Below, in pieces: positions 11,864 to 51,856 of a DNA stretch of 56,467 nucleotides (its first letter is position 1; each line of letters begins with the position of its first letter). Origin of the DNA: Candidatus Nomurabacteria bacterium. GTDB lineage: Bacteria > Patescibacteriota > Patescibacteriia > Magasanikbacterales > UBA922. The notes under the pieces are model-generated. The model was not told the DNA's origin, made no database searches, and saw only the letters and a program-made list of their open reading frames with translations. The translations under genes and the position numbers were made by a program. The DNA lies in NCBI GenBank assembly GCA_020632445.1, contig JACKFN010000006.1, forward strand, positions 1 through 56,467, in the 5' to 3' direction.

Positions 11864-11873
11864 ACAGTCCTAA

Positions 11874-14862: not shown

Positions 14863-17800
14863 TTATTGAGCGATGGTTGTAAGTTGCTGTGTAGCGGTAT
14901 TTTCAAAAGCATCACGAAGTGTCACTTCAAAAACATACTCCCTACCGGTTTCAAGACCATATACTTTCCACAAACGCTGTGTCTTGAGTATATTACTATT
15001 TGCTATTGGCTTACCATTTACAATGACGTTCACCGCGGTAGGCTCACTACTGAGAATCTGCAGCGTGTGGTAGTCCGCACTGATGTGATCCAGACTCAAA
15101 CCTTGAAAACTGGGATTAACACTGTCCCTTTGAGAATCATAGGAAGTAATGGTAACGCGAGCGATGGCATGTTGCGCAGTAATTTCGTTACTCACAAGGG
15201 TAACGACATAATCGTCCACGCTCTCAAAACACTGCACGAAGGTATAGTCCTTGTAATCGCGTGAGGTAATAAACTGTGAAGTCACAGAGTCTTCTTGATT
15301 GATTTTTATGCCAAGTGGATATGCGAATACGGAATTAAGTGTCTTTGCGTTGACGATCACAGAGTAACATCCCGCCTGAGTTGGACGAAAATTCACATAG
15401 GCAACCGAGCTTCGGTTAATCCCTGCGTAGGCAACATTGTACGCAATATTACTTCCACGAATCTGCGTTGGTGCAAACGTCCAAGTCAAATCACCCGTAG
15501 CAGAATTGCAATCATTGTCTATTCCATCGCCATTAACCTCAACAGCCCCAGGATTCACACTGGCATTCACGTCATTACAGTCAACCGGCACAGCGTATCC
15601 ATCGCCATCCTGATCACTATCTTTGGTGCTACTATCACAGTCATTATCTTTGCCGTCGTAAAAAATTTCTTTTCCTCCTGGTCGCACATCAGGATCATTG
15701 TCATTACAGTCAAACTGCACAAGCGACCCATCACCATCAGCGTCTTGAAGCTGATCAAGATCCTCCAAAATCACAATGAGTTTGTCGATATACAAATTGT
15801 TATCAATTGGTGGATCATACACATCGTTGGTAAATTCCATTCTGATGACATGCATACCTGCCCCTACCTTTGTAGACGCTTTGTACCTTTTGAAGCCGGC
15901 AGAATTGACATCAAAAGTCCCAATGACCACGCCATCAACACTAAGTTTCATCTGGGCGTTAAGTCCTTGAAAAATATCACCACGCGCTGCAACCTCAAAA
16001 CCATACTTTCCAGGAAGCAGCTGAACACTTTGTTCTACATAGCCATTACTATAGAGTGCAACAGAATCAGAAAATCGCTCAGAAACATTCGCCACAAGAT
16101 TCGCCATGTTTTCTGCTTCAAACTGGATGATTCTATTATTTCCATTGTCAGTTGTTCCAGCATTACAGTCATCATCAATACCATTTCCTAAAATCTCACT
16201 TCCACCCGGATTGATGCGAGCATTATTATCATCACAATCCACCTCTACCGTAAATCCATCACCATCATTGTCAAATGAGTAAAAGATAAACCTATCATTG
16301 TTTGAGGTCATGAAACTGCGAATCTGCGAACGCTTTGCGTTTCCGGCAGCGTCTTTTGATTCGATCTGGTAATAGTACCTCTTGTTACGAATAAGATTCG
16401 GCAAAATGACGCCGTGTGACTGAGTAAGAAATCCTGTTCCAATTTCACTGGTCATGCTTTCAGTAGTCAAACCATAAAAGACGGCGGAACTTGCAGGTTC
16501 ACTGGTTTGCCAGATAATACGCGCCTGCCCGGTAGTGATGTTTGTTTCGAGGATATTAAAGATTTGTGGCTGCTTGAAGTCAGGTGAAACAATGTCACCG
16601 CCCAGAAGTTTTCCATGTGCAAATAAATACATTTCACCTTGTCCAAGGAGCGCATTAAACTCCCGAACAGAGAAATACTGAAGTGGGCTGCCTGCGTAGG
16701 AAAGGTTGGCACTTCCATACTCAAAAGCTCTTCGAGCATCGCCCATGAGTTCGGCATTACCAGCTACATAGGCATGAGCAGCAAAAGCGTCTGCATACGC
16801 CAAGACGTCAGCGTTTGCAAGCTTTGATTGTGCACCATTTGCGTCGCACGCAAAATATTCATAGTTTTGTGCGCCATACACGAATCCTTTGAGCAAACTC
16901 GCACGAGACACGACCAAGTCCACCGCCTTTTGATCCACCAAAATGGCATTATCTTTGGAAACTTGATAGTAATGAGCTACCGCACTGATAGCCCTGGCCT
17001 GCTCAAGACTTGCCGCACAGGATTTGTCGAGACTTCCGGAAGCATTCACCGTCCAGAGATATTCTACAAGCCGTCTTGCCAGAGTGAGGTATTCCCTGTC
17101 ACCAAGCTGCTCATATCCGGCGATGAGTGCCTCAAGTGCTCCGGCAGTGTCATCGTTCAAACCGATCGTCACATCCTCTCGACACGTATTATCGCACTGT
17201 TTCAAAAGTAATGTCTGTGCCAATGCTGGATTATCTCTATATTCTAAATGCGTAAGACGATAGTACATATTATCCAGGATCTCTCGTCCAGTTTGCTCAA
17301 GCATTGGATCCGCGGTCTCTTTAGCCATTGCTAAAATTGCTCCTACCTTTTGCGCCTGCTCAAGGCTTGTACCAAATGAACCTCTATGCACATTGTTGCT
17401 CCCAGCATCCTGGAGAGTAAAATCATAAACACCACCCTCATACCAACGACGATCAGCATATTTTCCTTCAATTTGACTATGATGAACATCAATATCAGCG
17501 CTATGTCTTACCCCGGCGCGCAAAAGCGTATACCACAGGTCTTTTTGCTCGTCACTGAGTGTCCGTTTTGACTGTCTATACATTCCACCGAGCACGTCCC
17601 CGGGAAGATTTGATGGAAGCTGACCAGCAGCGCCACGGAGTGGGATATCACCATAGTCTATCATGCCATATAAATTGTTTTTTTGTATATCATCAAAAAC
17701 ACTGACTGCCTGTGACAATCCTGCGTTAAAGTTCTCAGGTCTTTGTATCTGTGTACTCAGAGCTGATTCGTATCCACTAAAATTTTGCCAATAACTACCG

Positions 17801-19113
17801 GCAATATATGGAAAATCTGTGACTTCAAGATCAAACCGCAATGGGTACTGGAGACTTTTTGCAACGTCTTGCACGTCTTGTGCTACGTCAGTGTGGTACC
17901 GAAGATAAAAACTGTGTGTTTTGTACTCACCTTCACGAAGCTCAAACTGACCGGAAAACTCTGCTGGAAAAAGACCAACTTCTAGACGATTATTTTTCCC
18001 ACGAAAAGCCTTTGGAAAATTCTGCCACGCATCTTCCATAACGAGTGTGATATTGCTGGCATCAAACCAACCTTCCATCTGATCAGCACCACGAAACCGT
18101 GACTGATCGATCTGTATAGTCGTCCCCTGGGTAGCGCTTCCTGACTGAAGCCTGGCATTTCCTGATATACTTTGGTACTGGGGGGTACCGCTTGAATCTT
18201 GATACAAAATAGCAGTGTTTTGGTATACCCCACTCAAAAGGCTCTGTGTATCACCATGATAATTTGGGATAGCGTATTTGTTGATTCCTTGCCCAATCAA
18301 TGACAAAGAAAGATCGTCAAACTTCATAGCCCCAAGTGATCCATAATCTGTGCTATGTGGATCAACGTGACCAAGTGCTCCTCGATTTTCCAAACGAAAA
18401 TCAACTTTTACAACAGCAGAATTTTTATAAAACTGCATTCTGGTGGTAAACCCGAGGTTATCCTTGATGACACCTTTGGCAATGAGCGAAATTTTGTTTG
18501 GACCGAACTGGTGCACTTCAATATCGGCCGAAGATGCGTGATAAATACCGTCAAGAAGTATCCCATAATTCTTGGCATTGACATCAGAATAATACACACG
18601 ATTAGAAAGACTTCCATCAAAAATGCTCACCAAGTCAAAGAATCGAAACTCGGTTTTTGAAATTTCAAATTCTGCAATCCCCGTATTAATGGTAATCCCC
18701 TCAGCATCGTTTTTGGTGACACGAAGTTTGCTCTCTACAAAGCTCTTCGTACCGTATTGCAGGTCAAACTTGGCCTTTTCTTTTGGAGCCATGTTTACCA
18801 GTGCATCGACATGAATCCATGAAATTGGCTTTGATGGGTCATCTGGTGATCCTCCATGTCGACCCACGATAGTAAACTGAGCAGCCACCTCAGCAGACTC
18901 TTTCATCAGCTGAAGATCACGTATATCACGAATATTTTTTTCTTTTGGAATAGGCAATGACCAACTTAGCGGCATATTGACGCGTGGCGCATCCAAAACA
19001 TTACGCACAGTAGCGCTTACAATCACTCCAGAATCCACTGCATCCACATCAACAACTCCCATGGGAAAAAACACGAGCAGAGTCAAGAAAAGAAAGGAAA
19101 AAACTTTTTTCAT
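14863..19113 (-). CDS. large (1416 aa) secreted multidomain protein (metal-binding DCDD repeats, CBM-like and Fn3-like modules)
   Basis: Signal peptide MKKVFSFLFLTLLVFFPMGVVDVDA. Three copies of the DGDG..DC(D/N)D..(N/R)PG..E..(N/D)G.D(N/D)DC motif. A CBM6/35-like block runs from IIQFEAENM to NLYIDKL. Two Fn3-like blocks are present. Confidence 0.8.
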   Translation of the reverse strand: MKKVFSFLFLTLLVFFPMGVVDVDAVDSGVIVSATVRNVLDAPRVNMPLSWSLPIPKEKNIRDIRDLQLMKESAEVAAQFTIVGRHGGSPDDPSKPISWIHVDALVNMAPKEKAKFDLQYGTKSFVESKLRVTKNDAEGITINTGIAEFEISKTEFRFFDLVSIFDGSLSNRVYYSDVNAKNYGILLDGIYHASSADIEVHQFGPNKISLIAKGVIKDNLGFTTRMQFYKNSAVVKVDFRLENRGALGHVDPHSTDYGSLGAMKFDDLSLSLIGQGINKYAIPNYHGDTQSLLSGVYQNTAILYQDSSGTPQYQSISGNARLQSGSATQGTTIQIDQSRFRGADQMEGWFDASNITLVMEDAWQNFPKAFRGKNNRLEVGLFPAEFSGQFELREGEYKTHSFYLRYHTDVAQDVQDVAKSLQYPLRFDLEVTDFPYIAGSYWQNFSGYESALSTQIQRPENFNAGLSQAVSVFDDIQKNNLYGMIDYGDIPLRGAAGQLPSNLPGDVLGGMYRQSKRTLSDEQKDLWYTLLRAGVRHSADIDVHHSQIEGKYADRRWYEGGVYDFTLQDAGSNNVHRGSFGTSLEQAQKVGAILAMAKETADPMLEQTGREILDNMYYRLTHLEYRDNPALAQTLLLKQCDNTCREDVTIGLNDDTAGALEALIAGYEQLGDREYLTLARRLVEYLWTVNASGSLDKSCAASLEQARAISAVAHYYQVSKDNAILVDQKAVDLVVSRASLLKGFVYGAQNYEYFACDANGAQSKLANADVLAYADAFAAHAYVAGNAELMGDARRAFEYGSANLSYAGSPLQYFSVREFNALLGQGEMYLFAHGKLLGGDIVSPDFKQPQIFNILETNITTGQARIIWQTSEPASSAVFYGLTTESMTSEIGTGFLTQSHGVILPNLIRNKRYYYQIESKDAAGNAKRSQIRSFMTSNNDRFIFYSFDNDGDGFTVEVDCDDNNARINPGGSEILGNGIDDDCNAGTTDNGNNRIIQFEAENMANLVANVSERFSDSVALYSNGYVEQSVQLLPGKYGFEVAARGDIFQGLNAQMKLSVDGVVIGTFDVNSAGFKRYKASTKVGAGMHVIRMEFTNDVYDPPIDNNLYIDKLIVILEDLDQLQDADGDGSLVQFDCNDNDPDVRPGGKEIFYDGKDNDCDSSTKDSDQDGDGYAVPVDCNDVNASVNPGAVEVNGDGIDNDCNSATGDLTWTFAPTQIRGSNIAYNVAYAGINRSSVAYVNFRPTQAGCYSVIVNAKTLNSVFAYPLGIKINQEDSVTSQFITSRDYKDYTFVQCFESVDDYVVTLVSNEITAQHAIARVTITSYDSQRDSVNPSFQGLSLDHISADYHTLQILSSEPTAVNVIVNGKPIANSNILKTQRLWKVYGLETGREYVFEVTLRDAFENTATQQLTTIAQ

Positions 19114-21844: not shown

Positions 21845-21876
21845 AAAAAAACGCCTTATTCCTAAGGCGTTTTTTG
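21845..21876. terminator. bidirectional intrinsic terminator (small RNA on +, exosortase gene on -)
   Basis: aaaaaaa-acgcctta-ttcc-taaggcgt-ttttt: an 8-bp stem that overlaps the last codons of the 21862 gene. Confidence 0.75.
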
Positions 21877-22803
21877 TTTGGCATTTCTGGAATCAAGCAT
21901 TCGTTTCCATACAAACGAAACATACGCTATGAAAAACAGTATAAGGAGTATCGCACCAATATTATTATGAAACAAATTTACCGCGAATTCAGGATCATAG
22001 TACGCACCGACCAAGAGGATCAAAAGTACTCTTATGCTATTAACCACGAAAACGAGGAGTAAACCCACAATGAAACTCACAACAACCCTCCAAGTGATAA
22101 ACCGATACCCTTTTTGTGATCCCATGAGTAAAAGTGTAGTAAAAAGCACAGTAAAAGCCAAAAGTGAGTGTATGCCCGCGCAGGGTGGACCAATATACGC
22201 GCTAAAGTTCTGTACTTGGACATTGAACGTCTCAAATCTCATCGTATGCTCAATATGAAAAAGACTAAACATGAGTTTTAAACCATACATGGTAACGAGC
22301 GAGGAGTACTCCCAAAAGTAATCAATGAGAATTGGTGCTAAAACAAACGGAATCAAAATCAACAACAAAATGCTAAGCTCTGTCTTAAACTGTACAAAAA
22401 ATTTTCTCCCAAATATCCCCAGAAGTACAAAAATACTTCCGATAAGTAAGACAATATATTCGGCAAATATAAGATCGACGTCATTTTCTAGAAATCCAAT
22501 CTTTTTTATAGGGAGAAAAAAGAACAATGCCCCAAAAAGTAAAAAGATTATGTTGTATGTTGTCTTTTCAGTTTTGCAATGTTGCTGAATTTTTTGAAAA
22601 AAGAAGAGAAAAAAAGCGGTCAGAAGAACAAAAGGTAAGTAGGTAACAAACCCATCAGAAATTTGAAGCTTGTACCCATAATACCTCTGCGTATACCAAA
22701 AATGCACAAAAGACAATACAAATGGCACAATCACAGCAAAAACACAGCGAGAGAGGACTCGCCGTGTTAATTTGCTTCTCAAGTCAATGGCAAGACGTTT
22801 CAT
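21862..22803 (-). CDS. exosortase/archaeosortase-family transpeptidase (polytopic membrane protein)
   Basis: Multi-TM protein. It has the three family signatures in order: Cys motif IGPPCAGIHSL, Asn/Arg motif VNSIRVL, and His motif LFHNNIG. Confidence 0.7.
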   Translation of the reverse strand: MKRLAIDLRSKLTRRVLSRCVFAVIVPFVLSFVHFWYTQRYYGYKLQISDGFVTYLPFVLLTAFFLFFFQKIQQHCKTEKTTYNIIFLLFGALFFFLPIKKIGFLENDVDLIFAEYIVLLIGSIFVLLGIFGRKFFVQFKTELSILLLILIPFVLAPILIDYFWEYSSLVTMYGLKLMFSLFHIEHTMRFETFNVQVQNFSAYIGPPCAGIHSLLAFTVLFTTLLLMGSQKGYRFITWRVVVSFIVGLLLVFVVNSIRVLLILLVGAYYDPEFAVNLFHNNIGAILLILFFIAYVSFVWKRMLDSRNAKQKTP

Positions 22804-26240: not shown

Positions 26241-27524
26241 CTATTTTTTTGCTAAAATAGGAGCTTTTTCTATGCTCGGCTGAAAAATCGTCCCGATCAA
26301 AATCCCCACAAGCAAAAGCCCAACATGCGATGTATACAAATAGTGATCAAACAGAAATGGTGGAGCAAGTGCAAAGAGGTACCAAAGCCCTTTGGTGTTT
26401 CCAAACCACAAAAACAACGCCAATATACCCCAAAGCAAGAGGAAGAAACCAAGCAAACCAAGCTCGGCAATAACGAGCAGAGCAGTGTTGTGCACAGGTT
26501 GAAGGGAATACACTGATCTGCCTGGGTCTATTGCCAATAACTGCTGTGTATAGTTTCCTCCCCCGCTACCAAGTAATACGCGCGACTGAAGAATTTCTTT
26601 CACTTCTTGAAGCCCGGTAAGTCGGTATTCCACAGAAGCTGCTTCAATGTGCCCCGCAGACATGAGACGAGACTTTGCCAGTGGCGCACAGAGTACTATA
26701 AGCAAAAAGAAGATCATCAAATTGAGAAAAACATACTTCTGTGCTTGCTTATCAAGTGCAACAGCAACAAGACTTGCTAGCATCAAACCAATCCACGCAC
26801 TGCGGCTAAAACTGAAAAATAAGCCGAACGTAAGAACAAAAACCGCGGTAATACAAAGTTTTTTTGAGTTGTCATTTTTTTTGTGGAGAAAAAAGAACGC
26901 TACAATGATGGCCACAAGCATATACCCTCCAAAAATGTTTGGATGAGCAAATGACCCATAACTTCTCAAAAATCGACCAACCATAGGATGCTCGACAACG
27001 ATCGTGCCTGACGCAGACGAGTCATACTGCGTAAGTCCAAGCCATCTGGAATCAAACGTCTGCTGAAAAGCAAACTGAGCCAGTGCAAGAAACGCAACCA
27101 GTACTGCTCCCCCTACAAACCACTGACACAGCCGGTGTCTATCAATTCTATCTGAAATGAATATTACAAAAAGCAAAAGACTTTGCATTATCCAAAGCGC
27201 GTGTTGCGACGCTATAGATGCATCGTGTGACCAAAACATCGAAGCAAGTGCATATATCACAAATACAAGCGCCGCCAGAAAAAAATGCCTATCTTTACTC
27301 CATTGAAAATGGAGTTGGTTGGTTGTCCTCTGTCTTAAAAAAATACGCAAAGTATCGAAAAAGAAAAGAAAAATCCCCAACCACAAAAGTATCTGTGTGG
27401 CATAAATCCCGAGTGTTGCCCACTGCCATTTTTCTCCTTGGATAAAAATCTCACGAGTAATATAAATAGTCTGCCAAGGCAAAAGAAAGACAAAGGCGTT
27501 AAAGATTTTTTGTTGCAGATTCAT
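26241..27524 (-). CDS. O-antigen ligase/polymerase-like (Wzy_C family) membrane protein
   Basis: Polytopic membrane protein. FSFSRSAWIGLMLA matches the O-antigen-ligase domain signature. Confidence 0.7.
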   Translation of the reverse strand: MNLQQKIFNAFVFLLPWQTIYITREIFIQGEKWQWATLGIYATQILLWLGIFLFFFDTLRIFLRQRTTNQLHFQWSKDRHFFLAALVFVIYALASMFWSHDASIASQHALWIMQSLLLFVIFISDRIDRHRLCQWFVGGAVLVAFLALAQFAFQQTFDSRWLGLTQYDSSASGTIVVEHPMVGRFLRSYGSFAHPNIFGGYMLVAIIVAFFFLHKKNDNSKKLCITAVFVLTFGLFFSFSRSAWIGLMLASLVAVALDKQAQKYVFLNLMIFFLLIVLCAPLAKSRLMSAGHIEAASVEYRLTGLQEVKEILQSRVLLGSGGGNYTQQLLAIDPGRSVYSLQPVHNTALLVIAELGLLGFFLLLWGILALFLWFGNTKGLWYLFALAPPFLFDHYLYTSHVGLLLVGILIGTIFQPSIEKAPILAKK

Positions 27525-32321: not shown

Positions 32322-32702
32322 TCACATCGGCAAAATAAACTTCCTCAGCCTCACACGGCTATTTTTTTTATCAACATATACACTGACTACCTCAAAACGA
32401 ATCGATTTCCGATCAATGTCAATGTTTTTCATCAAACAATACTCAAATGCCACCTTTTGAATCCGCATTTGCTTGTCCCATTTCACACTTCGCTCTGCGC
32501 TACCTTGTCCGGCCGCTCGTGTCTTTACCTCAACAAAACAAAGTGCATCGGTATCTGAATCATGCGCGATGATATCAATTTCATATTTTCCAGATCGAAA
32601 ATTTTTTCCAATCATTTCATATCCTAGGCGTATCAAAAAAGCAGCTGCTTGCTGCTCGCCCCAAGTGCCAAGTTGTGTATTCCCCCTCTTTTTGTGATTC
32701 AT
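32322..32702 (-). CDS. yraN: YraN-family (UPF0102) endonuclease-like protein
   Basis: GEQQAAAFLIRLGYEMIGKNFRSGKYEIDIIA...FVEVKTR. ATG 32702 lies 1 nt after the upstream stop. Confidence 0.8.
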   Translation of the reverse strand: MNHKKRGNTQLGTWGEQQAAAFLIRLGYEMIGKNFRSGKYEIDIIAHDSDTDALCFVEVKTRAAGQGSAERSVKWDKQMRIQKVAFEYCLMKNIDIDRKSIRFEVVSVYVDKKNSRVRLRKFILPM

Positions 32703-32703
32703 A

Positions 32704-33231
32704 TCATGCTCGATACAATACCATTCCAGCGTGATAGGGACCACAGGTAAACTCTTCTTGAATCGTAAAACCACGCTGCCTGGCCCAGTCTTCTATACTG
32801 TCAAAATTAATATACTGACTCTCTGGTGGTCCAAAACTCGCGCCCTTCTTCCACCAGTCCACGACAATCAACCGACACTTTTCCTTGAGAAGTCTGTTCG
32901 CTTCTTCAAGCACAGCAATTTGGTCTTCCACCTTCACGAGCACATTTACCAAAAAAATGACATCAAGACTTGCTGAAGGAATGGCCGTTGAGCCAATCTT
33001 TTCTATATTGGACCACACGCCATGGATATTGGAAATCCCCATGTCATGTGCGCGTTTCTCCAAATCATGAAGTTTGTCTTTGAGAATATCAACCGCATAT
33101 ACCACTCCACTCTCACCAATAATCTTTGAGGCTGGCAGAACAATATGGCCCGTTTTTCCACAGCCTAAATGTCCCATATGCATGCCTGCTTGGAGCTGTG
33201 CTTTTTGAAAGAGGAGCCCAACGTCGATCAT
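32704..33231 (-). CDS. class I SAM-dependent methyltransferase
   Basis: The Gly-rich HLGCGKTGH block followed by VYAVD matches methyltransferase motifs I/II. Substrate unknown. Confidence 0.6.
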   Translation of the reverse strand: MIDVGLLFQKAQLQAGMHMGHLGCGKTGHIVLPASKIIGESGVVYAVDILKDKLHDLEKRAHDMGISNIHGVWSNIEKIGSTAIPSASLDVIFLVNVLVKVEDQIAVLEEANRLLKEKCRLIVVDWWKKGASFGPPESQYINFDSIEDWARQRGFTIQEEFTCGPYHAGMVLYRA

Positions 33232-33232
33232 A

Positions 33233-33469
33233 CTAATTTATACCAAAAAGTCCACCAAAAATTCCAAGAATAATATCACCGAGTGACCCTGTTGCTCCCA
33301 GAAAAGCTACAACGATAAGGGTTACACCCAGAAGTTTGTAAAACATAAAACTTCCCATGTGCTGCTCGGCCCATTGACTCGCCCCAAAATTTTGGATGTA
33401 CCACTGAGATTTCCATACCATGGTAAACCCTACCACCATGACAATACCAGCAATTATATATCCACCCAT
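33233..33469 (-). CDS. small (78 aa) two-TM membrane protein
   Basis: Compact ORF tightly packed between neighbours, with two hydrophobic segments. Confidence 0.5.
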   Translation of the reverse strand: MGGYIIAGIVMVVGFTMVWKSQWYIQNFGASQWAEQHMGSFMFYKLLGVTLIVVAFLGATGSLGDIILGIFGGLFGIN

Positions 33470-33529
33470 AATATAATAATGAATTGATCAATTGATTTAA
33501 TTATACCCTAAATCCACTCATCAAGAAAG

Positions 33530-34123
33530 CTACTTACGTGAATACAAACCCACAAGCAGTGCCTCGTCAACAATGTGTTCGGAGATCATTGATGCTACCT
33601 GGTCCTTTGTAGCTCCCTCTGAAATGCTCAGCATGGCATCAAGAGCGTACACCTTAAAAAAATATCGGTGCATGCTTGGTTCATATTCTGGCGGTGGACA
33701 GGGTGGTCCATATTCTTGATTTCCTCTTGTATTTACCCCCATCAATCCGACATGACTGTTTTCTGGTATCTCAACCTCAGAGAGCTGCGTAACATCAATA
33801 TTGTACAAAACCCAATGATCAAAGACTTCGATATTCATGCGTTCCTTTACAACCTGAGGAATATCAGGATCATCTACAAAGAGAACCAATGACACTGCTT
33901 GCGTCGGGATTTCTGATATGTGTAATGGAGGACTGATACCCTCTCCATCACAAGTGTACACAGAAGGTATCATGCCTTCATGCATAAAGGCATTACTCGT
34001 AATTTTCATACTATTATGGTTATTATCTAAAGGAGTCACTGGCACGTCTTGGGCCGGAGGTCGCAAAGAGCCACATCCCACCAAAAAACAAAATACTCCT
34101 GCAATGACAAATACTTTATTCAT
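33530..34123 (-). CDS. YbhB/YbcL-family PEBP (Raf kinase inhibitor-like) lipoprotein
   Basis: Lipobox FLVGC. DDPD...FDHWVLYNI...GPPCPP...HRYFFKVYALD matches PEBP signatures. ATG 34123 overlaps the pgl stop. Confidence 0.8.
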   Translation of the reverse strand: MNKVFVIAGVFCFLVGCGSLRPPAQDVPVTPLDNNHNSMKITSNAFMHEGMIPSVYTCDGEGISPPLHISEIPTQAVSLVLFVDDPDIPQVVKERMNIEVFDHWVLYNIDVTQLSEVEIPENSHVGLMGVNTRGNQEYGPPCPPPEYEPSMHRYFFKVYALDAMLSISEGATKDQVASMISEHIVDEALLVGLYSRK

Positions 34124-34796
34124 ACCGATTGAAAAAAATGGATATGTCTGGGTGCTCAAGTAATCTTTTGGCTGGGAAGTTTTTCACAGAGCACTCTTTG
34201 TCCAATAGCTCACTTATAACCTGCTTTTTCTTTTCGCCCGATGCGAGTAGCAGTAGCTTGCGCGAATGCATTATAGCCTTCCAGCCCAAGGTAAGCCTTT
34301 GACGAACCGGAGGAGTCGGATCATACGGATTATCTGCCTGCAATACCAAATCTGTTTCGTTCAATACACTTTTTTGTCCAACCATAAGCGAAGCTGTGTG
34401 TCCATCAGTTCCAATACCAAGAATGCACACATCTAGCTCTCCTATTTCATCAAGTTCTTCTCTATACTTGTCTAAAGCTTTTTCCATAGACAGGCTGGTA
34501 TCAAAATAATGAAACCCCCTCAGACGCTCAGCTAATGGATCAACTAGGGTCGCTCGTATCATCTTTTGATTTGAATATTCACTACTTGCTGGAACATACC
34601 GCTCATCTATCATCCAAAACTCTACTTTTCCAAAATCTATGTTCTGATTTTGCGCAAGTGCCTGATAGAGTGGCCTTGGTGTATTTCCACCCGATAGGGC
34701 GATATGTACCACTTCTTGTGAATCGCAAACTTCCTCGATACATTTTACCAAAGCTTCTACATAGTCAACGGTGCTGTGAAACTCTTGAAGATTCAT
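34116..34796 (-). CDS. pgl: 6-phosphogluconolactonase
   Basis: IALSGGNTP, WMIDERYV and LGIGTDGHTASL motifs. Confidence 0.88.
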   Translation of the reverse strand: MNLQEFHSTVDYVEALVKCIEEVCDSQEVVHIALSGGNTPRPLYQALAQNQNIDFGKVEFWMIDERYVPASSEYSNQKMIRATLVDPLAERLRGFHYFDTSLSMEKALDKYREELDEIGELDVCILGIGTDGHTASLMVGQKSVLNETDLVLQADNPYDPTPPVRQRLTLGWKAIMHSRKLLLLASGEKKKQVISELLDKECSVKNFPAKRLLEHPDISIFFNRYE

Positions 34797-34805
34797 TTAG
34801 GATTT

Positions 34806-36242
34806 TTAACTTTTCATTTTAGACTTCTGATGCAAATCATACCACTCAAAACCATCCATGTGAGGAAGTTTGTGCTGGGCTTTTGGTCCCTCACTTCCAT
34901 CTTCATATATGTGAAGCTTTGAACAGTCTCCCTCCATAAGATACTCCATTTGATCAACCACTTTCCATGCAGAAAGTATCTCAGAAAAACTGAGGAAATG
35001 CGTACGCTCTCCCTCAAGTATATCAAGCAAAAGCATACCATGCTCTGGCAGACATCCTTCCACATCACAGGCAATCGAATCCGCGGTGGTAATCGATTGA
35101 TAGTGTGACACTCCCTCATGGAGATTCACGAGTTCAATATTGATTTTTGGGTATGGATAAAATTCAATGATAATTCTGTTCGGTTGCTCTTTGGGATTTT
35201 GAAAGGGAAATTTTTTCAGTTCAATCGAAACATAGGTGTGTTTTTCATGAAGCATTTTCCCGGTTCTTATGTATATTGGAACCTTGTACCAGTCTTCTTT
35301 GTCAATAAATAACCTCACTGCTGCAAACGTCTCTGTTCGTGAACCTTTTTTTACGCCATCTTGCTTTTTATAACTTTTGTACTGCCCGAGCACAACGTTA
35401 TTATCATCACACGGACAATCAATAGCTTCAAGGATGTTGTTTTTTTCACGTTTCAGGCTTTGTGAGCTGATATTGTTTGGTATTGCCATTGTGGTGAGCG
35501 CAAAGATTTGTAAAAGGTGTGATTGAATCATGTCCTTCACAATCCCCACCTGCTCGAAATACCCAATGCGATGCTCCACACCAATATTTTCAAGCGCAGT
35601 AATCTGAATATTTGCTATTTCGCTTCCTCTCAAAATATTTGCGAGAATTCTGTTTGAGCGTCTCATGTTCAAAATAGATTGAACCGATGACTTACCTAGG
35701 TAATGATCAAGAAGGTAAAACTGATCTTCCTTGAAATGCCTTGAAACAAAGTGAAATAAATCCTCTGCACTCTTGTAGCTTTCTCCAAACGGTTTTTCAA
35801 TCACAAGTCGAATGTCGTCACTTTTGCTCTTACGTGACTTGGCAAGGTTTTGAATGATCGGTTTGAAAACGACAGGAGGAACAGAAAAATACGCGATGTG
35901 CGCCATTTTTTTACGAGAAAGTTTTGAAAGAAACTGGTGATACTCCTTAAAATCTTGAAAAACATCGTACTGCCCAGAAAAATAATGGAAATGTGAAACA
36001 AGCTGTTTAAGCACCTTTGGTTTTATTTTTTCGGATGAATACTTCTTGATGCTCTGCGTGACGACTTTCTGAAACTCTTTTTGAGATATTTGTGTTCTAG
36101 AGTACCCAACGATACAAAAATCTTTTGGAAGCCTTTCTTGACGTGCCAATGTATAGAGTGCTGGAAAAATTTTCATCTTTGCCAAGTCACCGGAGGCACC
36201 AAATATGGTAAGGATGAATGGTTTTTTGAGTTTTTCGATCAT
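34806..36242 (-). CDS. zwf: glucose-6-phosphate 1-dehydrogenase
   Basis: IFGASGDLAKMK, IEKPFG and LDHYLGK motifs. The start is set at ATG 36242 (MIEKLKKPF). The track's 98-codon extension runs antisense through the GC island. Confidence 0.92.
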   Translation of the reverse strand: MIEKLKKPFILTIFGASGDLAKMKIFPALYTLARQERLPKDFCIVGYSRTQISQKEFQKVVTQSIKKYSSEKIKPKVLKQLVSHFHYFSGQYDVFQDFKEYHQFLSKLSRKKMAHIAYFSVPPVVFKPIIQNLAKSRKSKSDDIRLVIEKPFGESYKSAEDLFHFVSRHFKEDQFYLLDHYLGKSSVQSILNMRRSNRILANILRGSEIANIQITALENIGVEHRIGYFEQVGIVKDMIQSHLLQIFALTTMAIPNNISSQSLKREKNNILEAIDCPCDDNNVVLGQYKSYKKQDGVKKGSRTETFAAVRLFIDKEDWYKVPIYIRTGKMLHEKHTYVSIELKKFPFQNPKEQPNRIIIEFYPYPKINIELVNLHEGVSHYQSITTADSIACDVEGCLPEHGMLLLDILEGERTHFLSFSEILSAWKVVDQMEYLMEGDCSKLHIYEDGSEGPKAQHKLPHMDGFEWYDLHQKSKMKS

Positions 36243-36302
36243 AGAATTGTTTTTTTCTGATATTTGTCGTACACTAGTAAGCACACACCCTGGGAGTTCA
36301 CC

Positions 36303-36578
36303 ATGCGAAAGATGATTCTGATTCCCTCTTCGGCCAACGCGAAGGGCATCGTGCTGATGCTGGTCAATGTGATCTTCATGTCCATGCTGAGCTTTGAGCC
36401 GCCCTCCATGAGCTTGGATCAACTCGCTCTGTACGCGCAGCTGGGCGTGGTGCTGATGATCGCCGATGGCGCCATGCTGATGTACTACGTGTGCAAGCAA
36501 TTCACCTCCATGCATCTCGTCGATGAAAGCGAACAACCGCCCACCACCGAAGCTTCCACTCCCACCTCAAACTCCTAG
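36303..36578 (+). CDS. GC-elevated small (91 aa) two-TM membrane protein, likely acquired
   Basis: ATG 36303 has GGGAG 6 nt upstream. Hydrophobic segments are GIVLMLVNVIFMSMLSF and LGVVLMIADGAMLMYYV. Hand-counted G+C is 31/60 (36361-36420) and 38/60 (36421-36480). It is plus-strand between minus-strand gnd and zwf. Confidence 0.6.
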   Translation: MRKMILIPSSANAKGIVLMLVNVIFMSMLSFEPPSMSLDQLALYAQLGVVLMIADGAMLMYYVCKQFTSMHLVDESEQPPTTEASTPTSNS

Positions 36579-36592
36579 CCACCCATGCTAGG
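36574..36592. other. 6-bp GC hairpin overlapping the stop codon of the 36303 ORF
   Basis: cctagc (36574-36579), loop cacccat, gctagg (36587-36592). The TAG stop at 36576-36578 lies inside the left arm. Confidence 0.6.
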
Positions 36593-36608
36593 TCTTCTCA
36601 TTTATGGG

Positions 36609-38036
36609 CTATCCCTCATCCCAATCAGTATGATAGGTACCAGCCCTGTCATCCCTCTGATAGGTATGCGCCCCAAAATAATCTCGAAGCCCCTGGATAA
36701 AATTCGCAGGCATATGCTCAGCAGTACTGTATTCAAAATAGTAGAGCGCTGATGAAAATCCTGGAAGTGCCACACCACTTTGTGACATGCTTGCCACCGC
36801 ACTTCGTAAATCTTTTACATTCTTTTTCATGAGTGCCTGAATCTTTGGCAAGGCAAAGAGGTGTTCATCATGCCTTCTTGTCTCACTATAGGCATCCCCC
36901 AGTACACTGAGAAGCTTCGCTCGGATAATGCATCCACCTTCCCAAATTCGTGAAATTTCTTTCATATCTATCTTCCATCCTTCTTCTTTTGCGGCCTTAC
37001 AGATCAAATGGTAGCCTTGGGCATATGAGCTGAACATAGCAGCATAGAGCGCGTTTTCGAGTTGCTTTGTAAACTGCCCCAGCGTAATAACTTTTCCTCT
37101 CTTGGCAGGAGTATACTTTTTCGACAGTGCTACTCGAAGATTTTTTTCACTGGAAAGAAAACGAGCAAAAACCGCTTCATTGATCGTCGGTGTACTTACC
37201 CCTCGCTCAAGTGCATCAAGGGATGCCCACTTCCCTGTCCCCTTTTGTGAAGCAGTGTCCAAAATATGATAAACAAGACAGCATGAATTCTTGTCTAATT
37301 CATCTTTTTGACGAAGCACCGGCAAGGCGATCTCCAACAAATACGATTGAAGCTTCCCTCGATTATACTTTTGAAAGATATCCGCAATTTCTGGAGGAGA
37401 GAGTTTGTACACCTTCCTCAAAATCTCGTAACTCTCCGCCATAAACTGCATCACTGCATATTCAATTCCATTATGCACCATTTTTACATAATGACCAGCA
37501 GCACCAGATCCAACGTGAGTAACACACGGACCTTCAGAAAAATCTTTGGCAGCTATTTTGGTCAAAATAGGTTTCATCACCCTCCATGCTTGCATAGACC
37601 CTCCTGGCATAAGCGATGGACCATACAAGGCGCCATCCTCTCCTCCTGAGACACCGCATCCCATATACAAAATCCCTTTTTTTAATAGTGCTGCCTCACG
37701 TCTTTTGGTATCACCATAGTATGAATTTCCGCCATCGACAATGACGTCTCCCTTTTGTATATGTGGCAAAAGTGCTTTGATGACGGCATCAACAGGCTGG
37801 CCAGCTTGCACCATGATCATGATGCGGCGTGGACGCCTAAGTGATTGTACAAAAGTCTTGAGGTCACCAAATCCCGTGAAATTCCCTTCAAAATTCAAAA
37901 GAAACTGCTCTGTTTTGTTAAAGCTTCTATTATAAACGGAAACCGAAAAGCCTCGCGACTCGACATTTCGAGCAAGATTAGCTCCCATGACACCAAGTCC
38001 AATGAGACCAAAATCTGATGTGGGTTTTTGTGGCAT
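36609..38036 (-). CDS. gnd: 6-phosphogluconate dehydrogenase (decarboxylating)
   Basis: N-terminal GLIGLGVMGANLARN Rossmann motif. Length of 475 aa is colinear with Gnd. Confidence 0.93.
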   Translation of the reverse strand: MPQKPTSDFGLIGLGVMGANLARNVESRGFSVSVYNRSFNKTEQFLLNFEGNFTGFGDLKTFVQSLRRPRRIMIMVQAGQPVDAVIKALLPHIQKGDVIVDGGNSYYGDTKRREAALLKKGILYMGCGVSGGEDGALYGPSLMPGGSMQAWRVMKPILTKIAAKDFSEGPCVTHVGSGAAGHYVKMVHNGIEYAVMQFMAESYEILRKVYKLSPPEIADIFQKYNRGKLQSYLLEIALPVLRQKDELDKNSCCLVYHILDTASQKGTGKWASLDALERGVSTPTINEAVFARFLSSEKNLRVALSKKYTPAKRGKVITLGQFTKQLENALYAAMFSSYAQGYHLICKAAKEEGWKIDMKEISRIWEGGCIIRAKLLSVLGDAYSETRRHDEHLFALPKIQALMKKNVKDLRSAVASMSQSGVALPGFSSALYYFEYSTAEHMPANFIQGLRDYFGAHTYQRDDRAGTYHTDWDEG

Positions 38037-38038
38037 AT

Positions 38039-39007
38039 CTATACAATCAACTTTTTAAACTCTTCTACCATAGGAACTTTCTCTGACTCAAGGCCATAAC
38101 TTTCCGCGCAGTAGACGGCTGTCCAGTCGGCAATGAGCAGTGACACAAAAGCCTTCTCAAGCTCTGTAGCACCTTCCATATTTATTGACATTACAGGCAG
38201 GCCGCGATCTTTGTATAATTTCTCCACCACTTCCATGCGTTTTTGAATCTTTGGATGATCACTATCATCTTTGAGCATGATAAACGCAAAGCGATCAGAT
38301 AAATGCTTACTCGTATCAGTAACATCAAACCCTGTCATTTCATTGTGGTTGAGTTCTGGAAAAACATTGTAAAATGCAGGAATCTTCCCTGTTTCATTAA
38401 ATTTTATCTTCCAATTCCACGCAATGGTTTCATTGGACCTCGAACAATACACCACCGGAACTCTGTCCTTGAGCCAATTGGCAACTTCTTTTCCCTGAGA
38501 TTCCCATACTGCGGGATTAATGGCACCTGCAAGTGACTTAGCCCCTTGTAAAAGATCTTCTCTTCCAGTAAGCTTTGCAAGTCCCAAAAAGCTCAACCCC
38601 AATCCACTCCTTGGTTGAATATTGGTATTTGGAAGCTGCACGTAAGGCAGGTCATCTTCCTTTGCCATTTCTAAAAGTTTCCCCCCAACCGCGATCACCG
38701 CAATGTCCATTCCTTTCTCTTTTACCTCGTTGTAAGCAAAAATAACTTCTTCGGTATTCCCAGAATATGAACTGGCAATAAACAAACTCTCTTCGTACTT
38801 TTTTTCTGAAACCAAAGGAAGTCCATAATCCCTATGTACAACCAGATCAAAGGTTGGATCCATTTTGAGTACCAAATCAGCCGCCAGGTGCGATCCTCCC
38901 ATACCGGTAAGCAAAAATGACTGCTTGCTTGGCATCTTATCTCCATTGATTATTTCTGGATCATATGCAAATTGCTTTGCAAAATTGTTTATAGCATCTC
39001 TCATCAT
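38039..39007 (-). CDS. bifunctional phosphoglucose/phosphomannose isomerase (SIS-domain, archaeal-type)
   Basis: LTGMGGSHLAADL, SSYSGNTEE and a C-terminal FNETGKIPAFYNVFPELNHNE block. Confidence 0.8.
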   Translation of the reverse strand: MMRDAINNFAKQFAYDPEIINGDKMPSKQSFLLTGMGGSHLAADLVLKMDPTFDLVVHRDYGLPLVSEKKYEESLFIASSYSGNTEEVIFAYNEVKEKGMDIAVIAVGGKLLEMAKEDDLPYVQLPNTNIQPRSGLGLSFLGLAKLTGREDLLQGAKSLAGAINPAVWESQGKEVANWLKDRVPVVYCSRSNETIAWNWKIKFNETGKIPAFYNVFPELNHNEMTGFDVTDTSKHLSDRFAFIMLKDDSDHPKIQKRMEVVEKLYKDRGLPVMSINMEGATELEKAFVSLLIADWTAVYCAESYGLESEKVPMVEEFKKLIV

Positions 39008-46503: not shown

Positions 46504-48576
46504 TTACACCTCAATGACCACCGGCAGTACCATTGGACGCTTTTCTGTTTTGGAAAAAATAAACTGTCCAATCTTGTCGCGAATATCGTTTTTGATCTGA
46601 TTGGTATCTGCCCATGAAAGTGGGTCAGAATGCGCAATCATAGATTTGACCTTGTTTCTCACTTCTTGGATAAGCTCACGGTTATCCTTGAGGAATACAA
46701 ACCCACGAGAGATGATGTCTGGATTTTGGATCAGGTCACCGGTCTTGGTATCTACGGTAGCAATGATGACAATCATTCCATCTTCCGCGAGTACCTGTCT
46801 ATCACGCAAAACCACGTGCTGAGAATCTGAAATTCCGAGTCCATCGACAAAAACATACTCACTTGGTGCTTTCTGCTTTTGTATTTGAAACTTTCCACCT
46901 TTAAAGTCAATAACCGTTCCATTGTCAGGTACCACGGTCTTTCGCTCATCAAAACCATTTTTTACGGCAAGACGTTGCGCTTCTTTGAGGAAATAGTGAT
47001 TTGCATAGATAGGAATAAAGTAATCCGGCTGAATCATTTTAATAACCTCCATGATATCCTGACGAGTAGCATGTCCAGAAATATGCACATCCATGACATC
47101 GCCATGGTAGACATTGTCACACTGACGATAAATGTTATCCTTGAGACGCTGAATCGTTCGTTCATTTCCAGGAATAATCGATGAAGAAAATATGACCGTG
47201 TCATTTTTTCGGAATCGAATACTCCTATGATCTCCTTGTACAATACGGTTCAGCACCGCACGCTCTTCTCCCTGACCTCCAGTACAAATCACAACGATTT
47301 CGCTGTCGTGATAGTTATCAATCTTTTTTACGTCAATCAGGACACCTCTCTTTGGTTTGATGTACCCCAATTTTTTGGAAAGTTCCACATTGGTCTTCAT
47401 GCTATAACCATCGAGAGCCACTTTTTTTCCAAGATTTCCAGCAGCATCAATAATCCACCGAACTCGTTCTACCTGCGAAGCAAAGGTCGCAACAACTACA
47501 CGACCGGGTGCATTTTGCAAAAGTGCATAAATATTTTCATACATTTCCTCATATGTTCCATGACGCTTATTGTTGGTAGCGCCAAGACTCTCAAGCATCA
47601 AAATCCTTGGGCTCTTGAGTTTCCGAAGCGGTGTATAGTCAATACCATGCTTCCCATCTTTGTCACGTTCAAGCGTCCAATCACCCGGATGAATAATTGT
47701 TCCCTGAGGTGTCTCAAGGATAACCCCCATGGAATCCATAATTGAATGCTCAACTTGAAAAAACTTCACCGTAATCTGTCCAAATTTCATCACATCACTG
47801 AGCGATTTTACACGAATGACATTGAGTTTTTTGGCAGTATTTGGTTTGTAGTCTTCCTGCTTGTGTTTAATAAGTGCGACGGTAAGGTCACGAGCAACAA
47901 TAGGAGGATTTCCGAGTTTTTCCAGTACGAGTGGAGCCGCACCAATATGGTCAAGATGCCCATGAGTAAATACCACGGCTCTGATGTTTTTTTCTTTTCC
48001 TTCCAAATACTTTGTATTTGGAATAATGTAATCAATCCCAGGCATGTCTTCCTCTGGAAACTGTACACCAACATCAACAATAATGATGTCATCATTGTAC
48101 TCAAAAATTGTCATGTTTCTTCCAACTTCTTCACATCCACCGATTGGAATGATACGCAAAGTATCTTTGGCTGCGGCAGCAACCTTTTGCCTCGGACTCT
48201 TCAGGCTGTTTTTCATGACTGGAACACTACGACTTCTCCCTTTTCCCCTGCTACCGGAAGCGTTATTTGAACGATTGCCTCGTGAAGCGTTTCCTTGATG
48301 TCCGGCATTTGATCGCTGCTGAAAATTTGACCTCTTACCGGCACTCTGTCCACCCCGTGAGTCTCTTCTTGTTTGAGAGCTTGGTCTTGATGAAGAAGTT
48401 TTTGCTTGTGGCATTGCACCACTGCTCGCCGTTTGGCGAGCTTGCGCAGAACTTGTGCGCGTAGAGGCCTTACGTGAAGCATATCCACCCCGAGATGGCC
48501 TCTGAGTTGAACGCTGCTCTGAAGAACTTGACTGCCTTCGCTGTGCGCTCCGCTTTCCTGAATTTTTTCGAATCAT
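46504..48576 (-). CDS. rnj: ribonuclease J (metallo-beta-lactamase/beta-CASP) with ~135-aa Arg/Ser-rich N-terminal extension
   Basis: HGHLDHIG motif and a beta-CASP core colinear with RNase J. The N-terminus is low-complexity S/R/Q/G-rich. Confidence 0.9.
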   Translation of the reverse strand: MIRKNSGKRSAQRRQSSSSEQRSTQRPSRGGYASRKASTRTSSAQARQTASSGAMPQAKTSSSRPSSQTRRDSRGGQSAGKRSNFQQRSNAGHQGNASRGNRSNNASGSRGKGRSRSVPVMKNSLKSPRQKVAAAAKDTLRIIPIGGCEEVGRNMTIFEYNDDIIIVDVGVQFPEEDMPGIDYIIPNTKYLEGKEKNIRAVVFTHGHLDHIGAAPLVLEKLGNPPIVARDLTVALIKHKQEDYKPNTAKKLNVIRVKSLSDVMKFGQITVKFFQVEHSIMDSMGVILETPQGTIIHPGDWTLERDKDGKHGIDYTPLRKLKSPRILMLESLGATNNKRHGTYEEMYENIYALLQNAPGRVVVATFASQVERVRWIIDAAGNLGKKVALDGYSMKTNVELSKKLGYIKPKRGVLIDVKKIDNYHDSEIVVICTGGQGEERAVLNRIVQGDHRSIRFRKNDTVIFSSSIIPGNERTIQRLKDNIYRQCDNVYHGDVMDVHISGHATRQDIMEVIKMIQPDYFIPIYANHYFLKEAQRLAVKNGFDERKTVVPDNGTVIDFKGGKFQIQKQKAPSEYVFVDGLGISDSQHVVLRDRQVLAEDGMIVIIATVDTKTGDLIQNPDIISRGFVFLKDNRELIQEVRNKVKSMIAHSDPLSWADTNQIKNDIRDKIGQFIFSKTEKRPMVLPVVIEV

Positions 48577-48618
48577 AAAAAAAGAAATTTGTTATCAATA
48601 TTAGAGTATTTGTGGAAA

Positions 48619-50894: not shown

Positions 50895-51006
50895 GATCCA
50901 ATTTTGTCCTGATTTCTCCGGGTTCCATTTATGAGTACAAGATGTATTCAATGGCGATAGTGTACAAAAATACGGCTTTTTTGTCAATACTCAAACATCT
51001 CAACCC

Positions 51007-51035
51007 TTGACAAATGTGCTAAAATATGCTAATAT
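51007..51035 (+). promoter_or_regulatory. consensus promoter upstream of GC-rich ORF
   Basis: TTGACA (51007-51012), 17 nt, TAATAT (51030-51035). Confidence 0.6.
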
Positions 51036-51076
51036 ACCTTGTTCCCACATATGTGCCCAAGGGGCAGGAGGTTGTG

Positions 51077-51697
51077 ATGGGATGGCACAAGAACCCCGCT
51101 TTGTGGGGTGTCGCACTGGGTCTTCTGGCCGTTCAGGTCCTGCTGGCCGCTCTGGGCTGGTGGAAGGCCCTGTGGTGCCTGGACACCAGCCTGATCGTCG
51201 GAGTCACTGTCTGGAACTTCCGTGAGTTCTTCCGGAAGTTCGCGTTCAACGACCAGTTCGATGGACAGCTCCCACTCGTCATCCAGTCCATTCCTGGGCT
51301 GCCGCGACGCCAGGTGCGCATGCGCTCGGTCGTGATCCGACGCGTGAACGGCACCGGTCCCTTCGCCATCAAGCTGGGGATGCGCCTGATGGACGGCCTG
51401 GACTGGTACGGCGCGGTCAACAGCGGAGACAAGAGTGGCGGCCACACCAACACGCTGGTGTTCGAAACCTTCGTTGGCAGTCGAAACTGGGGCATGGTCG
51501 TCATGTACCGGAGCCGGCCCAACACGGCCAGCATACAGGTCGAAGGGCTTGGCGAAGTGACGATGCGTAACGGGGTTTCCATCCTCGACCCTCGTGACTT
51601 CACCATCGAGGTGACCGACCAGCCTCCCTTCGCCCCTACCCAGACTTTCGCTCCCCACCTCATTCAACGCATCCTGGCCCGACTCGGCTGGATGTAG
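51077..51697 (+). CDS. GC-rich membrane-anchored protein of unknown function, likely acquired
   Basis: AGGAGG (51066-51071) lies 5 nt before ATG 51077. The track's 51026 start would sit inside the promoter. The N-terminus is hydrophobic (ALWGVALGLLAVQVLLAALGWW) and is followed by a soluble domain of about 150 aa. Hand-counted G+C is 44/60 for 51301-51360. Confidence 0.7.
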   Translation: MGWHKNPALWGVALGLLAVQVLLAALGWWKALWCLDTSLIVGVTVWNFREFFRKFAFNDQFDGQLPLVIQSIPGLPRRQVRMRSVVIRRVNGTGPFAIKLGMRLMDGLDWYGAVNSGDKSGGHTNTLVFETFVGSRNWGMVVMYRSRPNTASIQVEGLGEVTMRNGVSILDPRDFTIEVTDQPPFAPTQTFAPHLIQRILARLGWM

Positions 51698-51702
51698 AAG
51701 CC

Positions 51703-51722
51703 GGCGCGCCCCACCGCGCGCC
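51703..51722. other. 7-bp all-GC hairpin just after the stop of the GC-rich ORF
   Basis: ggcgcgc (51703-51709), loop cccacc, gcgcgcc (51716-51722). No T-run follows. Confidence 0.7.
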
Positions 51723-51765
51723 ACCCTCAACACACAAACGTTTGAGCATAAAAATATCTAAACAC

Positions 51766-51787
51766 AGCGCCAATAGGCGTTTTTTTG
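51766..51787 (+). terminator. intrinsic terminator
   Basis: agcgcc-aata-ggcgt followed by ttttttt, located in AT-rich DNA. Confidence 0.55.
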
Positions 51788-51827: not shown

Positions 51828-51856
51828 TTGACAGCCTGAACATTGTATTGTATAAT
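51828..51856 (+). promoter_or_regulatory. rpmE promoter
   Basis: TTGACA (51828-51833), 17 nt, TATAAT (51851-51856). Confidence 0.7.

Follow-up and report, generated by a model that had tools for sequence, protein, structure and literature searches.

In the window analysed here, that is, the whole 56,467-nt stretch of a chromosomal contig from a Magasanikbacteria-like bacterium of the Candidate Phyla Radiation (CPR), the 366-bp spacer between the minus-strand genes gnd and zwf (36243–36608) appears to hold some 315 bp of foreign coding DNA, inserted recently and in this lineage only, which came as a compact unit with a single gene from a donor of higher GC than the host, and we assign this reading a probability of roughly 0.7. 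At its centre stands a plus-strand open reading frame (ORF) of 91 codons at 36303–36578, termed ORF91 here and also annotated as a coding sequence in NCBI, with the product MRKMILIPSSANAKGIVLMLVNVIFMSMLSFEPPSMSLDQLALYAQLGVVLMIADGAMLMYYVCKQFTSMHLVDESEQPPTTEASTPTSNS. As envisaged here, the unit would have carried its own Shine–Dalgarno (SD) sequence (GGGAG-N6-ATG), the 91-codon frame and a hairpin lying over the stop codon, and it would have entered between gnd and zwf without a signature of site-specific recombination.

Comparison with related genomes sets the insertion apart from its surroundings. Only three loci in which gnd is followed by zwf were found, namely L002, L048 (Ca. Magasanikbacteria CG11) and L049 (a metagenome contig), with amino acid identities of 73% (Gnd) and 77% (Zwf) for L002 and L048 and of 75–76% for L049. 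The two genes are adjacent in each of them and lie 27 bp apart, and this short spacer is AT-rich and devoid of any ORF, from which it follows that some 315–340 bp of the 366 bp present here are lineage-specific extra DNA and not a shared native spacer. An earlier sequence-only reading of the window had described gnd and zwf as minus-strand genes parted by 366 bp of higher-GC DNA; both the position and the elevated composition of that DNA are borne out, and none of the three relatives carries the same spacer with native composition.

The GC content of 36301–36600 is 0.553, with a peak of 0.575 in 200-nt windows, against 0.37–0.44 in the flanks and a mean of 0.429 (43%) over the 56 kb, and only three places in the window rise at least 0.13 above that mean in 200-nt windows: 1151–2050 (island 1), 36351–36600 (the present island, counted as island 3) and 51001–51750 (island 2). 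By means of a 30-nt GC trace and a change-point fit, the core of foreign composition (about 315 bp, 55% GC) was placed at 36281–36595; its left edge is sharp at about 36281 and its right edge lies just past the hairpin, where the maximum-likelihood boundary merges with the 3' end of gnd, which is itself richer in GC. The AT-rich stretch of about 40 nt adjoining zwf (36243–36280) looks like a remnant of the native spacer. Neither a target-site duplication nor terminal inverted repeats were detected at the island junctions, and a 9-nt complementarity between the SD and the stop regions of the island is probably due to chance. The junctions were also recovered by an independent assembly, in which Logan contig L001 (6,507 bp, run SRR12358675) is 100% identical to window positions 32327–38833 and thus covers the entire island together with more than 2 kb of flanking DNA to either side.

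The codon statistics show that the island codes for protein on the plus strand and does so in the codon style of a genome GC-richer than the host. The GC contents at the first, second and third codon positions (GC1, GC2 and GC3) of ORF91 are.505,.374 and.78, and its codon-position GC spread of 0.377, set against a shuffle mean of 0.087 and a shuffle maximum of 0.274, was reached in 0 of 2000 shuffles. The GC3 exceeds that of all 442 host windows of 91 codons (maximum 0.516), and the synonymous-codon score under a host model, −0.25, lies far below the values of the same windows (mean +0.094, standard deviation 0.046, minimum −0.055). Codons ending in C or G are preferred: CTG serves for 8 of the 11 leucines, and G/C-ending codons serve for every proline (6/6), valine (7/7), glycine (3/3) and lysine (3/3). 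Under a codon model trained only on islands 1 and 2, the ORF91 frame scored +0.254 bits per codon and the next best of the six frames 0.048. The plus-strand frame that the sequence-only reading had preferred is hence the only one of six favoured by the island-trained model, and its codon usage lies far outside the host range.

The signals around the frame point in the same direction. The SD-like GGGAG lies at 36292–36296 on the plus strand, six nucleotides before the ATG, and, as had been remarked before, the spacing is the same as in island 1 (GGGAG-acttcc-ATG at 1275); in all three island ORFs, GGGAG or AGGAGG is centred at −11. When the 34 host genes with 200 codons or more were scanned for a 5-mer SD in front of every candidate start within their first 50 codons, no more than 3 had one, in each case at an internal GTG or TTG codon. 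Judging by these motifs, the islands seem to have translation signals of the donor type, whereas their present host appears not to rely on SD pairing, and nothing specific was found in the literature on SD usage in Patescibacteria and on horizontal transfer in CPR bacteria. Host gene start regions are A/T-rich, and host promoters can be perfect sigma-70 consensus sequences, such as that at 51828–51856 before rpmE (12/12). At the other end of ORF91, the hairpin CCTAGC-CACCCAT-GCTAGG (36574–36592, plus strand), followed by TCTTCTCATT, has a 6-bp GC stem and contains the TAG stop, just as it had been drawn from the letters.

Two hydrophobic stretches, residues 13–31 and 41–59, with Kyte–Doolittle 19-mer means of 1.93 and 1.78, stand out in the ORF91 product, and the AlphaFold2 (AF2) single-sequence model places helices at residues 10–30 and 38–76 with moderate confidence (predicted local distance difference test, pLDDT, 65). 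The protein begins with an N-terminus holding 3 basic and no acidic residues (+3), followed by a first transmembrane (TM) helix, TM1, at about 15–31, the loop EPPSMSLDQ (−2), TM2 at about 41–64 with Asp55, and a 27-residue acidic tail (K+R = 1, D+E = 4, net −3) rich in Pro, Thr and Ser. Hydropathy, the AF2 model and the charge count thus agree with the two hydrophobic helices and the acidic Pro/Thr tail that had been claimed for this ORF. In keeping with the positive-inside rule, the protein would form an N-in/C-in helical hairpin in the cytoplasmic membrane with a short external loop, and its acidic tail is predicted to be disordered.

The polar residues in mid-helix, Asn22 in TM1 and Asp55 in TM2, may favour oligomerisation or binding to another membrane protein. 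They occupy equivalent positions of an internal in-frame repeat on the plus strand, with copies at 36344–36369 (G-I-V-L-M-L-V-N) and 36443–36468 (G-V-V-L-M-I-A-D), 33 codons apart, whose 77% identity over 26 nt is marginal in comparison with codon shuffles (p about 0.04); the repeat may reflect a duplication of the TM helix. A reading as an F-ATPase c-subunit-like protein, suggested by the acidic residue in TM2, was rejected as it found no support in Pfam. Methionine accounts for 11% of the residues (2.2% in the host). Within about 290 bp (36300–36590), five copies of the hexamer CCATGC are found, among them those at the start codon and in the loop of the 3' hairpin. The copies inside ORF91, like the high methionine content, result from Met/Leu-rich helices combined with C-ending codons; this account covers only the in-ORF copies, and the two copies at the ORF91 boundaries constitute the longest direct repeat of the junctions.

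An orphan is what the 91-aa product proves to be, as all the homology searches were either empty or non-significant. A word-indexed search of 5.8 billion clusters returned only the protein itself, and an exhaustive phmmer search of 1.84 billion representatives returned itself and one further entry (P0002), which was discarded as a homologue, being a 988-aa repetitive junk translation. No significant match was obtained in Pfam, PHROGs, NCBIfam or PADLOC, the best PHROG being 22787, 'membrane protein', at a non-significant E = 0.053; no match was obtained in Joint Genome Institute (JGI) metagenome contigs, IMG/VR, phage and plasmid collections (tblastn) or PDB sequences, nor in the PDB when the AF2 model was compared by Foldseek.

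The two other islands of the window are larger units of a similar kind. Island 1 (span about 1150–2030) has a plus-strand ORF at 1275–1967 of 230 aa (GC.66, up to 0.73; GC3.92), whose product is lipoprotein-like, with the lipobox LAAC and three PPDDREMT tandem repeats. The promoter TTGACA-17-TATAGT (1047–1075) precedes this ORF, its stop is followed by an 11-bp hairpin, and positions 2029–2066 form an intrinsic terminator; its product is a strict orphan in the search of 5.8 billion clusters and has no match in viral and plasmid collections. Positions 1101–1134, between the promoter and the ORF, hold AAAGGAGG and, 11 nt on, a 4-codon mini-ORF (ATG ATC TTT ACA TAG), which may be a leader peptide or chance. 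Island 2 (span about 51040–51730) is located where an SBP_bac_5 gene and rpmE (L31) diverge, and its plus-strand ORF at 51077–51697 encodes 206 aa with an N-terminal membrane anchor (GC.62, GC3.81). It has its own promoter (51007–51035), an AGGAGG SD and a terminator (51766–51781), and its 3' junction is reproduced by Logan contig L081. Its product found no match in family libraries or in viral, plasmid and phage collections, the search of 5.8 billion clusters not having been applied to it, and its AF2 single-sequence model is unusable (pLDDT 41). Each of these two islands thus possesses a near-consensus sigma-70 promoter and an intrinsic terminator, unlike island 3. Among the three islands no shared DNA or protein similarity and no shared boundary motif was detected; all three products are predicted envelope proteins, and all three ORFs are plus-strand and SD-led.

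A separate observation concerns the relative L002 (contig PCWN01000003.1), in which a minus-strand ORF of 184 aa with multiple TM helices (11466–12020) is flanked by UPF0102 and a TrmB-like regulator and runs antisense to every neighbouring gene. Its GC is 0.47–0.56, against a locus mean of 0.37, and its GC3 is.58, against.23–.35 in the neighbours; no Pfam family matches it, and the window lacks it at the equivalent position. A candidate fourth island in the window itself, at 48150–48580, was rejected, as it is the low-complexity N-terminus of RNase J (46504–48576, minus strand) on the host strand and not an insertion. This N-terminal extension, of about 140 aa, is rich in Ser, Arg, Gly and Gln, and its local GC of 0.50 mimics a small island in composition scans.

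A number of findings weigh against the reading of island 3 as a transferred gene unit, and they are best considered together with the rival that draws on them most, in which the island is a foreign fragment dead on arrival, introduced by illegitimate recombination and tolerated in the spacer, neither transcribed from the plus strand nor translated. The stop-free length of the frame is not significant, as 25% of dinucleotide shuffles of the core have an open run of at least 97 codons in one of the six frames; an open frame of such length is not improbable at this composition, so that the intactness of ORF91 proves recency and not selection. The dead-fragment explanation holds that nothing but the youth of the insertion and the scarcity of new stops in GC3-rich frames has kept the frame open. 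No plus-strand promoter of at least 9/12 was found in 36000–36300, within about 300 nt upstream of ORF91, and the plus-strand terminator candidate is weak, in that the hairpin with its T-rich tail passes the scan where 1 site was found against 0.8 expected by chance. The host seems to be without SD-led initiation, which makes the efficiency of ORF91 translation uncertain. Since there is no homologue, neither conservation nor the ratio of non-synonymous to synonymous substitution rates (dN/dS) can serve as a test of function, and the donor was not found, ORF91 being without a match in the metagenome, viral, phage and plasmid collections. Junction repeats that would reveal the mechanism of insertion were not found either, the longest being the 6-mer CCATGC. 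Finally, one sample of the organism exists (clusters of 1–2 members), which provides no population evidence for presence or absence, and the closest relatives, only 73–77% identical in Gnd and Zwf, leave the timing of the gain loose.

The lack of a promoter, the unremarkable open length, the SD-independence of the host, the strict orphan status and the merely marginal evidence of internal structure all speak for a dead fragment. On the other hand, SD, start, stop and hairpin fit into about 315 bp with almost no extra foreign DNA, which is rare for a random fragment; the sister islands are complete units of promoter, SD, ORF and terminator; and all three products are envelope-targeted. We hence consider the dead fragment unlikely, though it retains a real share of the probability, and favour the acquisition of a compact gene unit.

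That ORF91 is expressed at all is given roughly even odds. Transcription might start from the only promoter-like string in front of it, TTGTTT-N17-TACACT at 36247–36275, which was read by eye, scores 7/12 and falls below the scan threshold; it would set the start of the transcript exactly at the GC boundary, and it overlaps the start of zwf. The 3' end of gnd faces the island, so that ORF91 and gnd are convergent (tail-to-tail), and zwf is divergent from it (head-to-head), their start codons being 60 nt apart. Read on the minus strand, the hairpin lacks a T-run behind it, and a minus-strand promoter was not found in the spacer. Given the lack of a minus-strand terminator or promoter here and the 27-bp spacers of the relatives, gnd, zwf and pgl are most likely still read through the island as a single minus-strand transcript, and any ORF91 mRNA would then be fully antisense to the operon transcript. 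The sequence-only reading had noted that zwf is without an obvious promoter and had blamed the insertion for it; the former holds, and the latter does not, as zwf of the relatives is also without one, the genes being operonic.

If functional, ORF91 could be a small oligomerising hairpin protein of the cytoplasmic membrane with an accessory role at the envelope, for which exclusion or immunity is suggested by other cases of single inserted genes with foreign composition. Silent cargo that has not yet decayed is the main alternative, and ORF91 may equally be a poorly expressed passenger on its way to decay.

A different account assigns the GC-rich DNA to zwf itself, as a His/Gln-rich N-terminal extension of the enzyme starting on the minus strand at 36536 or 36500. 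The antisense frame is indeed a His/Gln-rich run, open and continuous with zwf, as had been stated before; the Logan gene call is of 564 aa (L001 2334–4028, equal to window 34806–36500, minus strand); and under the host codon model none of the six frames scores better than the extension frame, though its value is still negative at −0.023 bits per codon. However, Zwf of the window aligns with Zwf of the relatives from residue 1 at ATG 36242 (MIEKLKK against MIPKLKK, tblastn), so that a start at 36536 is not borne out, and the NCBI annotation gives a Zwf of 478 aa plus the separate 91-aa ORF. The GC1 of the extension frame,.745, is abnormal, and its synonymous score of −0.03, close to random, lies 2.6 standard deviations below the host windows (mean +0.094, standard deviation 0.046). 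The frame is moreover the exact mirror of a GC3-rich ORF, and such a mirror is open automatically, since a stop in it requires TTA, CTA or TCA on the coding strand, codons that a GC3-rich gene avoids; opposite the ORFs of islands 1 and 2, the equivalent frame contains 1 and 0 stops, respectively. A search with the antisense extension peptide, aimed at relatives with a mis-called island, gave no match, but this negative carries no weight, as the intended positive control, the 564-aa Logan call, was missed as well, being a non-representative member of a 478-aa cluster. On the other grounds, a genuine extension is highly improbable, and the 564-aa call is an artefact of annotation that the GC-rich insert brought about.

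In AT-rich genomes, islands of high GC often turn out to be RNA genes, and a structured non-coding RNA or a regulatory leader might be suspected in a GC-rich island of a genome with 43% GC, the more so as it contains the hairpin at 36574–36592. The minimum free energy, however, is no better than that of shuffles on either strand (z +0.40 and +0.32), no Rfam match reaches the gathering threshold and a permissive scan gave only noise (E >2), ARAGORN reports no tRNA or tmRNA, and the strong 3-nt periodicity is that of coding DNA, which leaves this explanation barely credible. An assembly chimera, in which reads of a GC-rich organism were joined into the CPR contig, would suit a metagenome-derived contig with an abrupt change of composition and no other sample of the organism, but it has next to no credibility, as the NCBI contig of the metagenome-assembled genome and Logan L001 are identical across both junctions, the inserted DNA falls precisely between two genes and leaves both of them intact, and the 3' junction of island 2 is likewise reproduced.

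Taken as an acquired gene unit, the island may be compared with several known systems. As set out in the relevant passages of Cumby, Davidson & Maxwell 2012 (PMC3594210), phage morons are genes inserted singly between two others that lie side by side in related genomes, for example the HK97 gene 15 element. The likeness consists in extra DNA of deviating GC between genes that abut in relatives, a single small ORF and a small envelope protein, which is here a predicted one. HK97 gp15 is a membrane protein. Unlike a moron, island 3 resides in a cellular CPR chromosome among housekeeping neighbours and not in a phage or prophage, it is without a promoter of its own of at least 9/12 and has a weak terminator candidate (the sister islands 1 and 2 have both), and it has no sequence relationship to any moron family. 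ORFan genes and islets acquired by horizontal transfer are reportedly detected by their atypical composition in the amelioration framework of Lawrence and Ochman. The island shares with such islets its atypical GC and codons, outside the host range, its absence from the syntenic site of relatives, the lack of a detectable homologue, the small size and the sharp boundaries, although no donor lineage was found; it differs in showing no tRNA, integrase or direct-repeat signature, in carrying an SD into an SD-poor host and in being one of three units in 56 kb of a reduced CPR genome. The island is thus a moron-like ORFan islet, an ordinary type of event, namely single-gene horizontal acquisition, in the unusual host of an uncultured member of the Patescibacteria.

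Class II holins, pinholins and other small two-TM proteins of phages and defence resemble ORF91 in length (65–95 aa), in having two TM helices and in the predicted N-in/C-in topology. A class II holin was nevertheless rejected: size and TM helices agree, but the tail is acidic (net −3) and not strongly basic, no endolysin or lysis cassette is adjacent, and no family hidden Markov model matches. An integron gene cassette is likewise a compact promoterless SD–ORF unit with an inverted repeat at its 3' end; it was rejected too, as the hairpin measures 19 nt against at least about 55 nt for attC, no RYYYAAC/GTTRRRY cores are present, no integrase is found among the Pfam-scanned ORFs, and the window has no cassette array. 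With regard to type I toxin–antitoxin systems, read-through from gnd into zwf would give an RNA fully complementary to the ORF91 mRNA. Typical type I toxins are smaller than the 91-aa, two-TM ORF91.

The surroundings of the island are ordinary. On the minus strand, gnd (36609–38036) encodes a 6-phosphogluconate dehydrogenase of 475 aa (Pfam 6PGD, 7e-106, plus NAD_binding_2; 73% identical to that of L002), and zwf (34806–36242, start ATG at 36242) encodes a glucose-6-phosphate dehydrogenase of 478 aa (Pfam G6PD_N plus G6PD_C). Downstream of zwf lie pgl (34116–34796) and a PEBP-family gene (33530–34159), and gnd is preceded by a bacterial PGI-like SIS protein (38039–39007). The other genes of the window are those of a normal chromosome, including RF1, RF2, L31, RNase J, TrpRS, NDH-2, GroEL/ES, YidC, NusA, KsgA, Sua5, transaldolase, a CitMHS transporter and an exosortase, though no 16S rRNA gene; outside the islands, the Pfam-scanned ORFs are housekeeping or unannotated. 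No integrase, transposase or phage gene was found among them, which argues that the island is not part of a larger mobile element. Surface proteins of the CPR bacterium are probably encoded by two giant minus-strand ORFs, one at 2129–11863 (3,244 aa) without any Pfam match and one at 14863–19113 (1,416 aa) with MopE-type metal-binding motifs, CBM60 and fn3-like domains; near them lie the exosortase (21862–22803) and an O-antigen-ligase-like gene (26241–27524).

The fusion of zwf into a 564-aa protein by one gene caller is a concrete warning on GC-rich inserts beside genes. If ORF91 is expressed, a previously unknown membrane protein would have been added to a minimal CPR envelope, and an antisense unit would lie inside the gnd–zwf–pgl operon, which would make this a simple, naturally occurring example of an operon disrupted by a foreign gene. 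The SD-led foreign genes in an SD-poor host constitute a testable case of how far translation signals restrict the benefit of gene transfer. Together, the three islets cleanly mark recent gene flow into a CPR bacterium from donors rich in GC, and the identity of a donor would suggest a physical partner.

More notable than the single island is the recurrence of SD-led, GC-rich envelope orphans in an SD-poor CPR genome. It is conceivable, though quite doubtful at present, that the lineage repeatedly captures single SD-led envelope genes from GC-rich partner or host organisms or from their phages, placing them in intergenic positions without a recognisable integrase, att site or repeat; the presence of three such genes in 56 kb, the fourth GC-elevated antisense membrane ORF in a relative and the SD-poor host genes are consistent with it. 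Were this proposal true, the islets would stand for a separate, cassette-like way in which reduced genomes gain genes, and they would be footprints of an episymbiotic association that could name the host.

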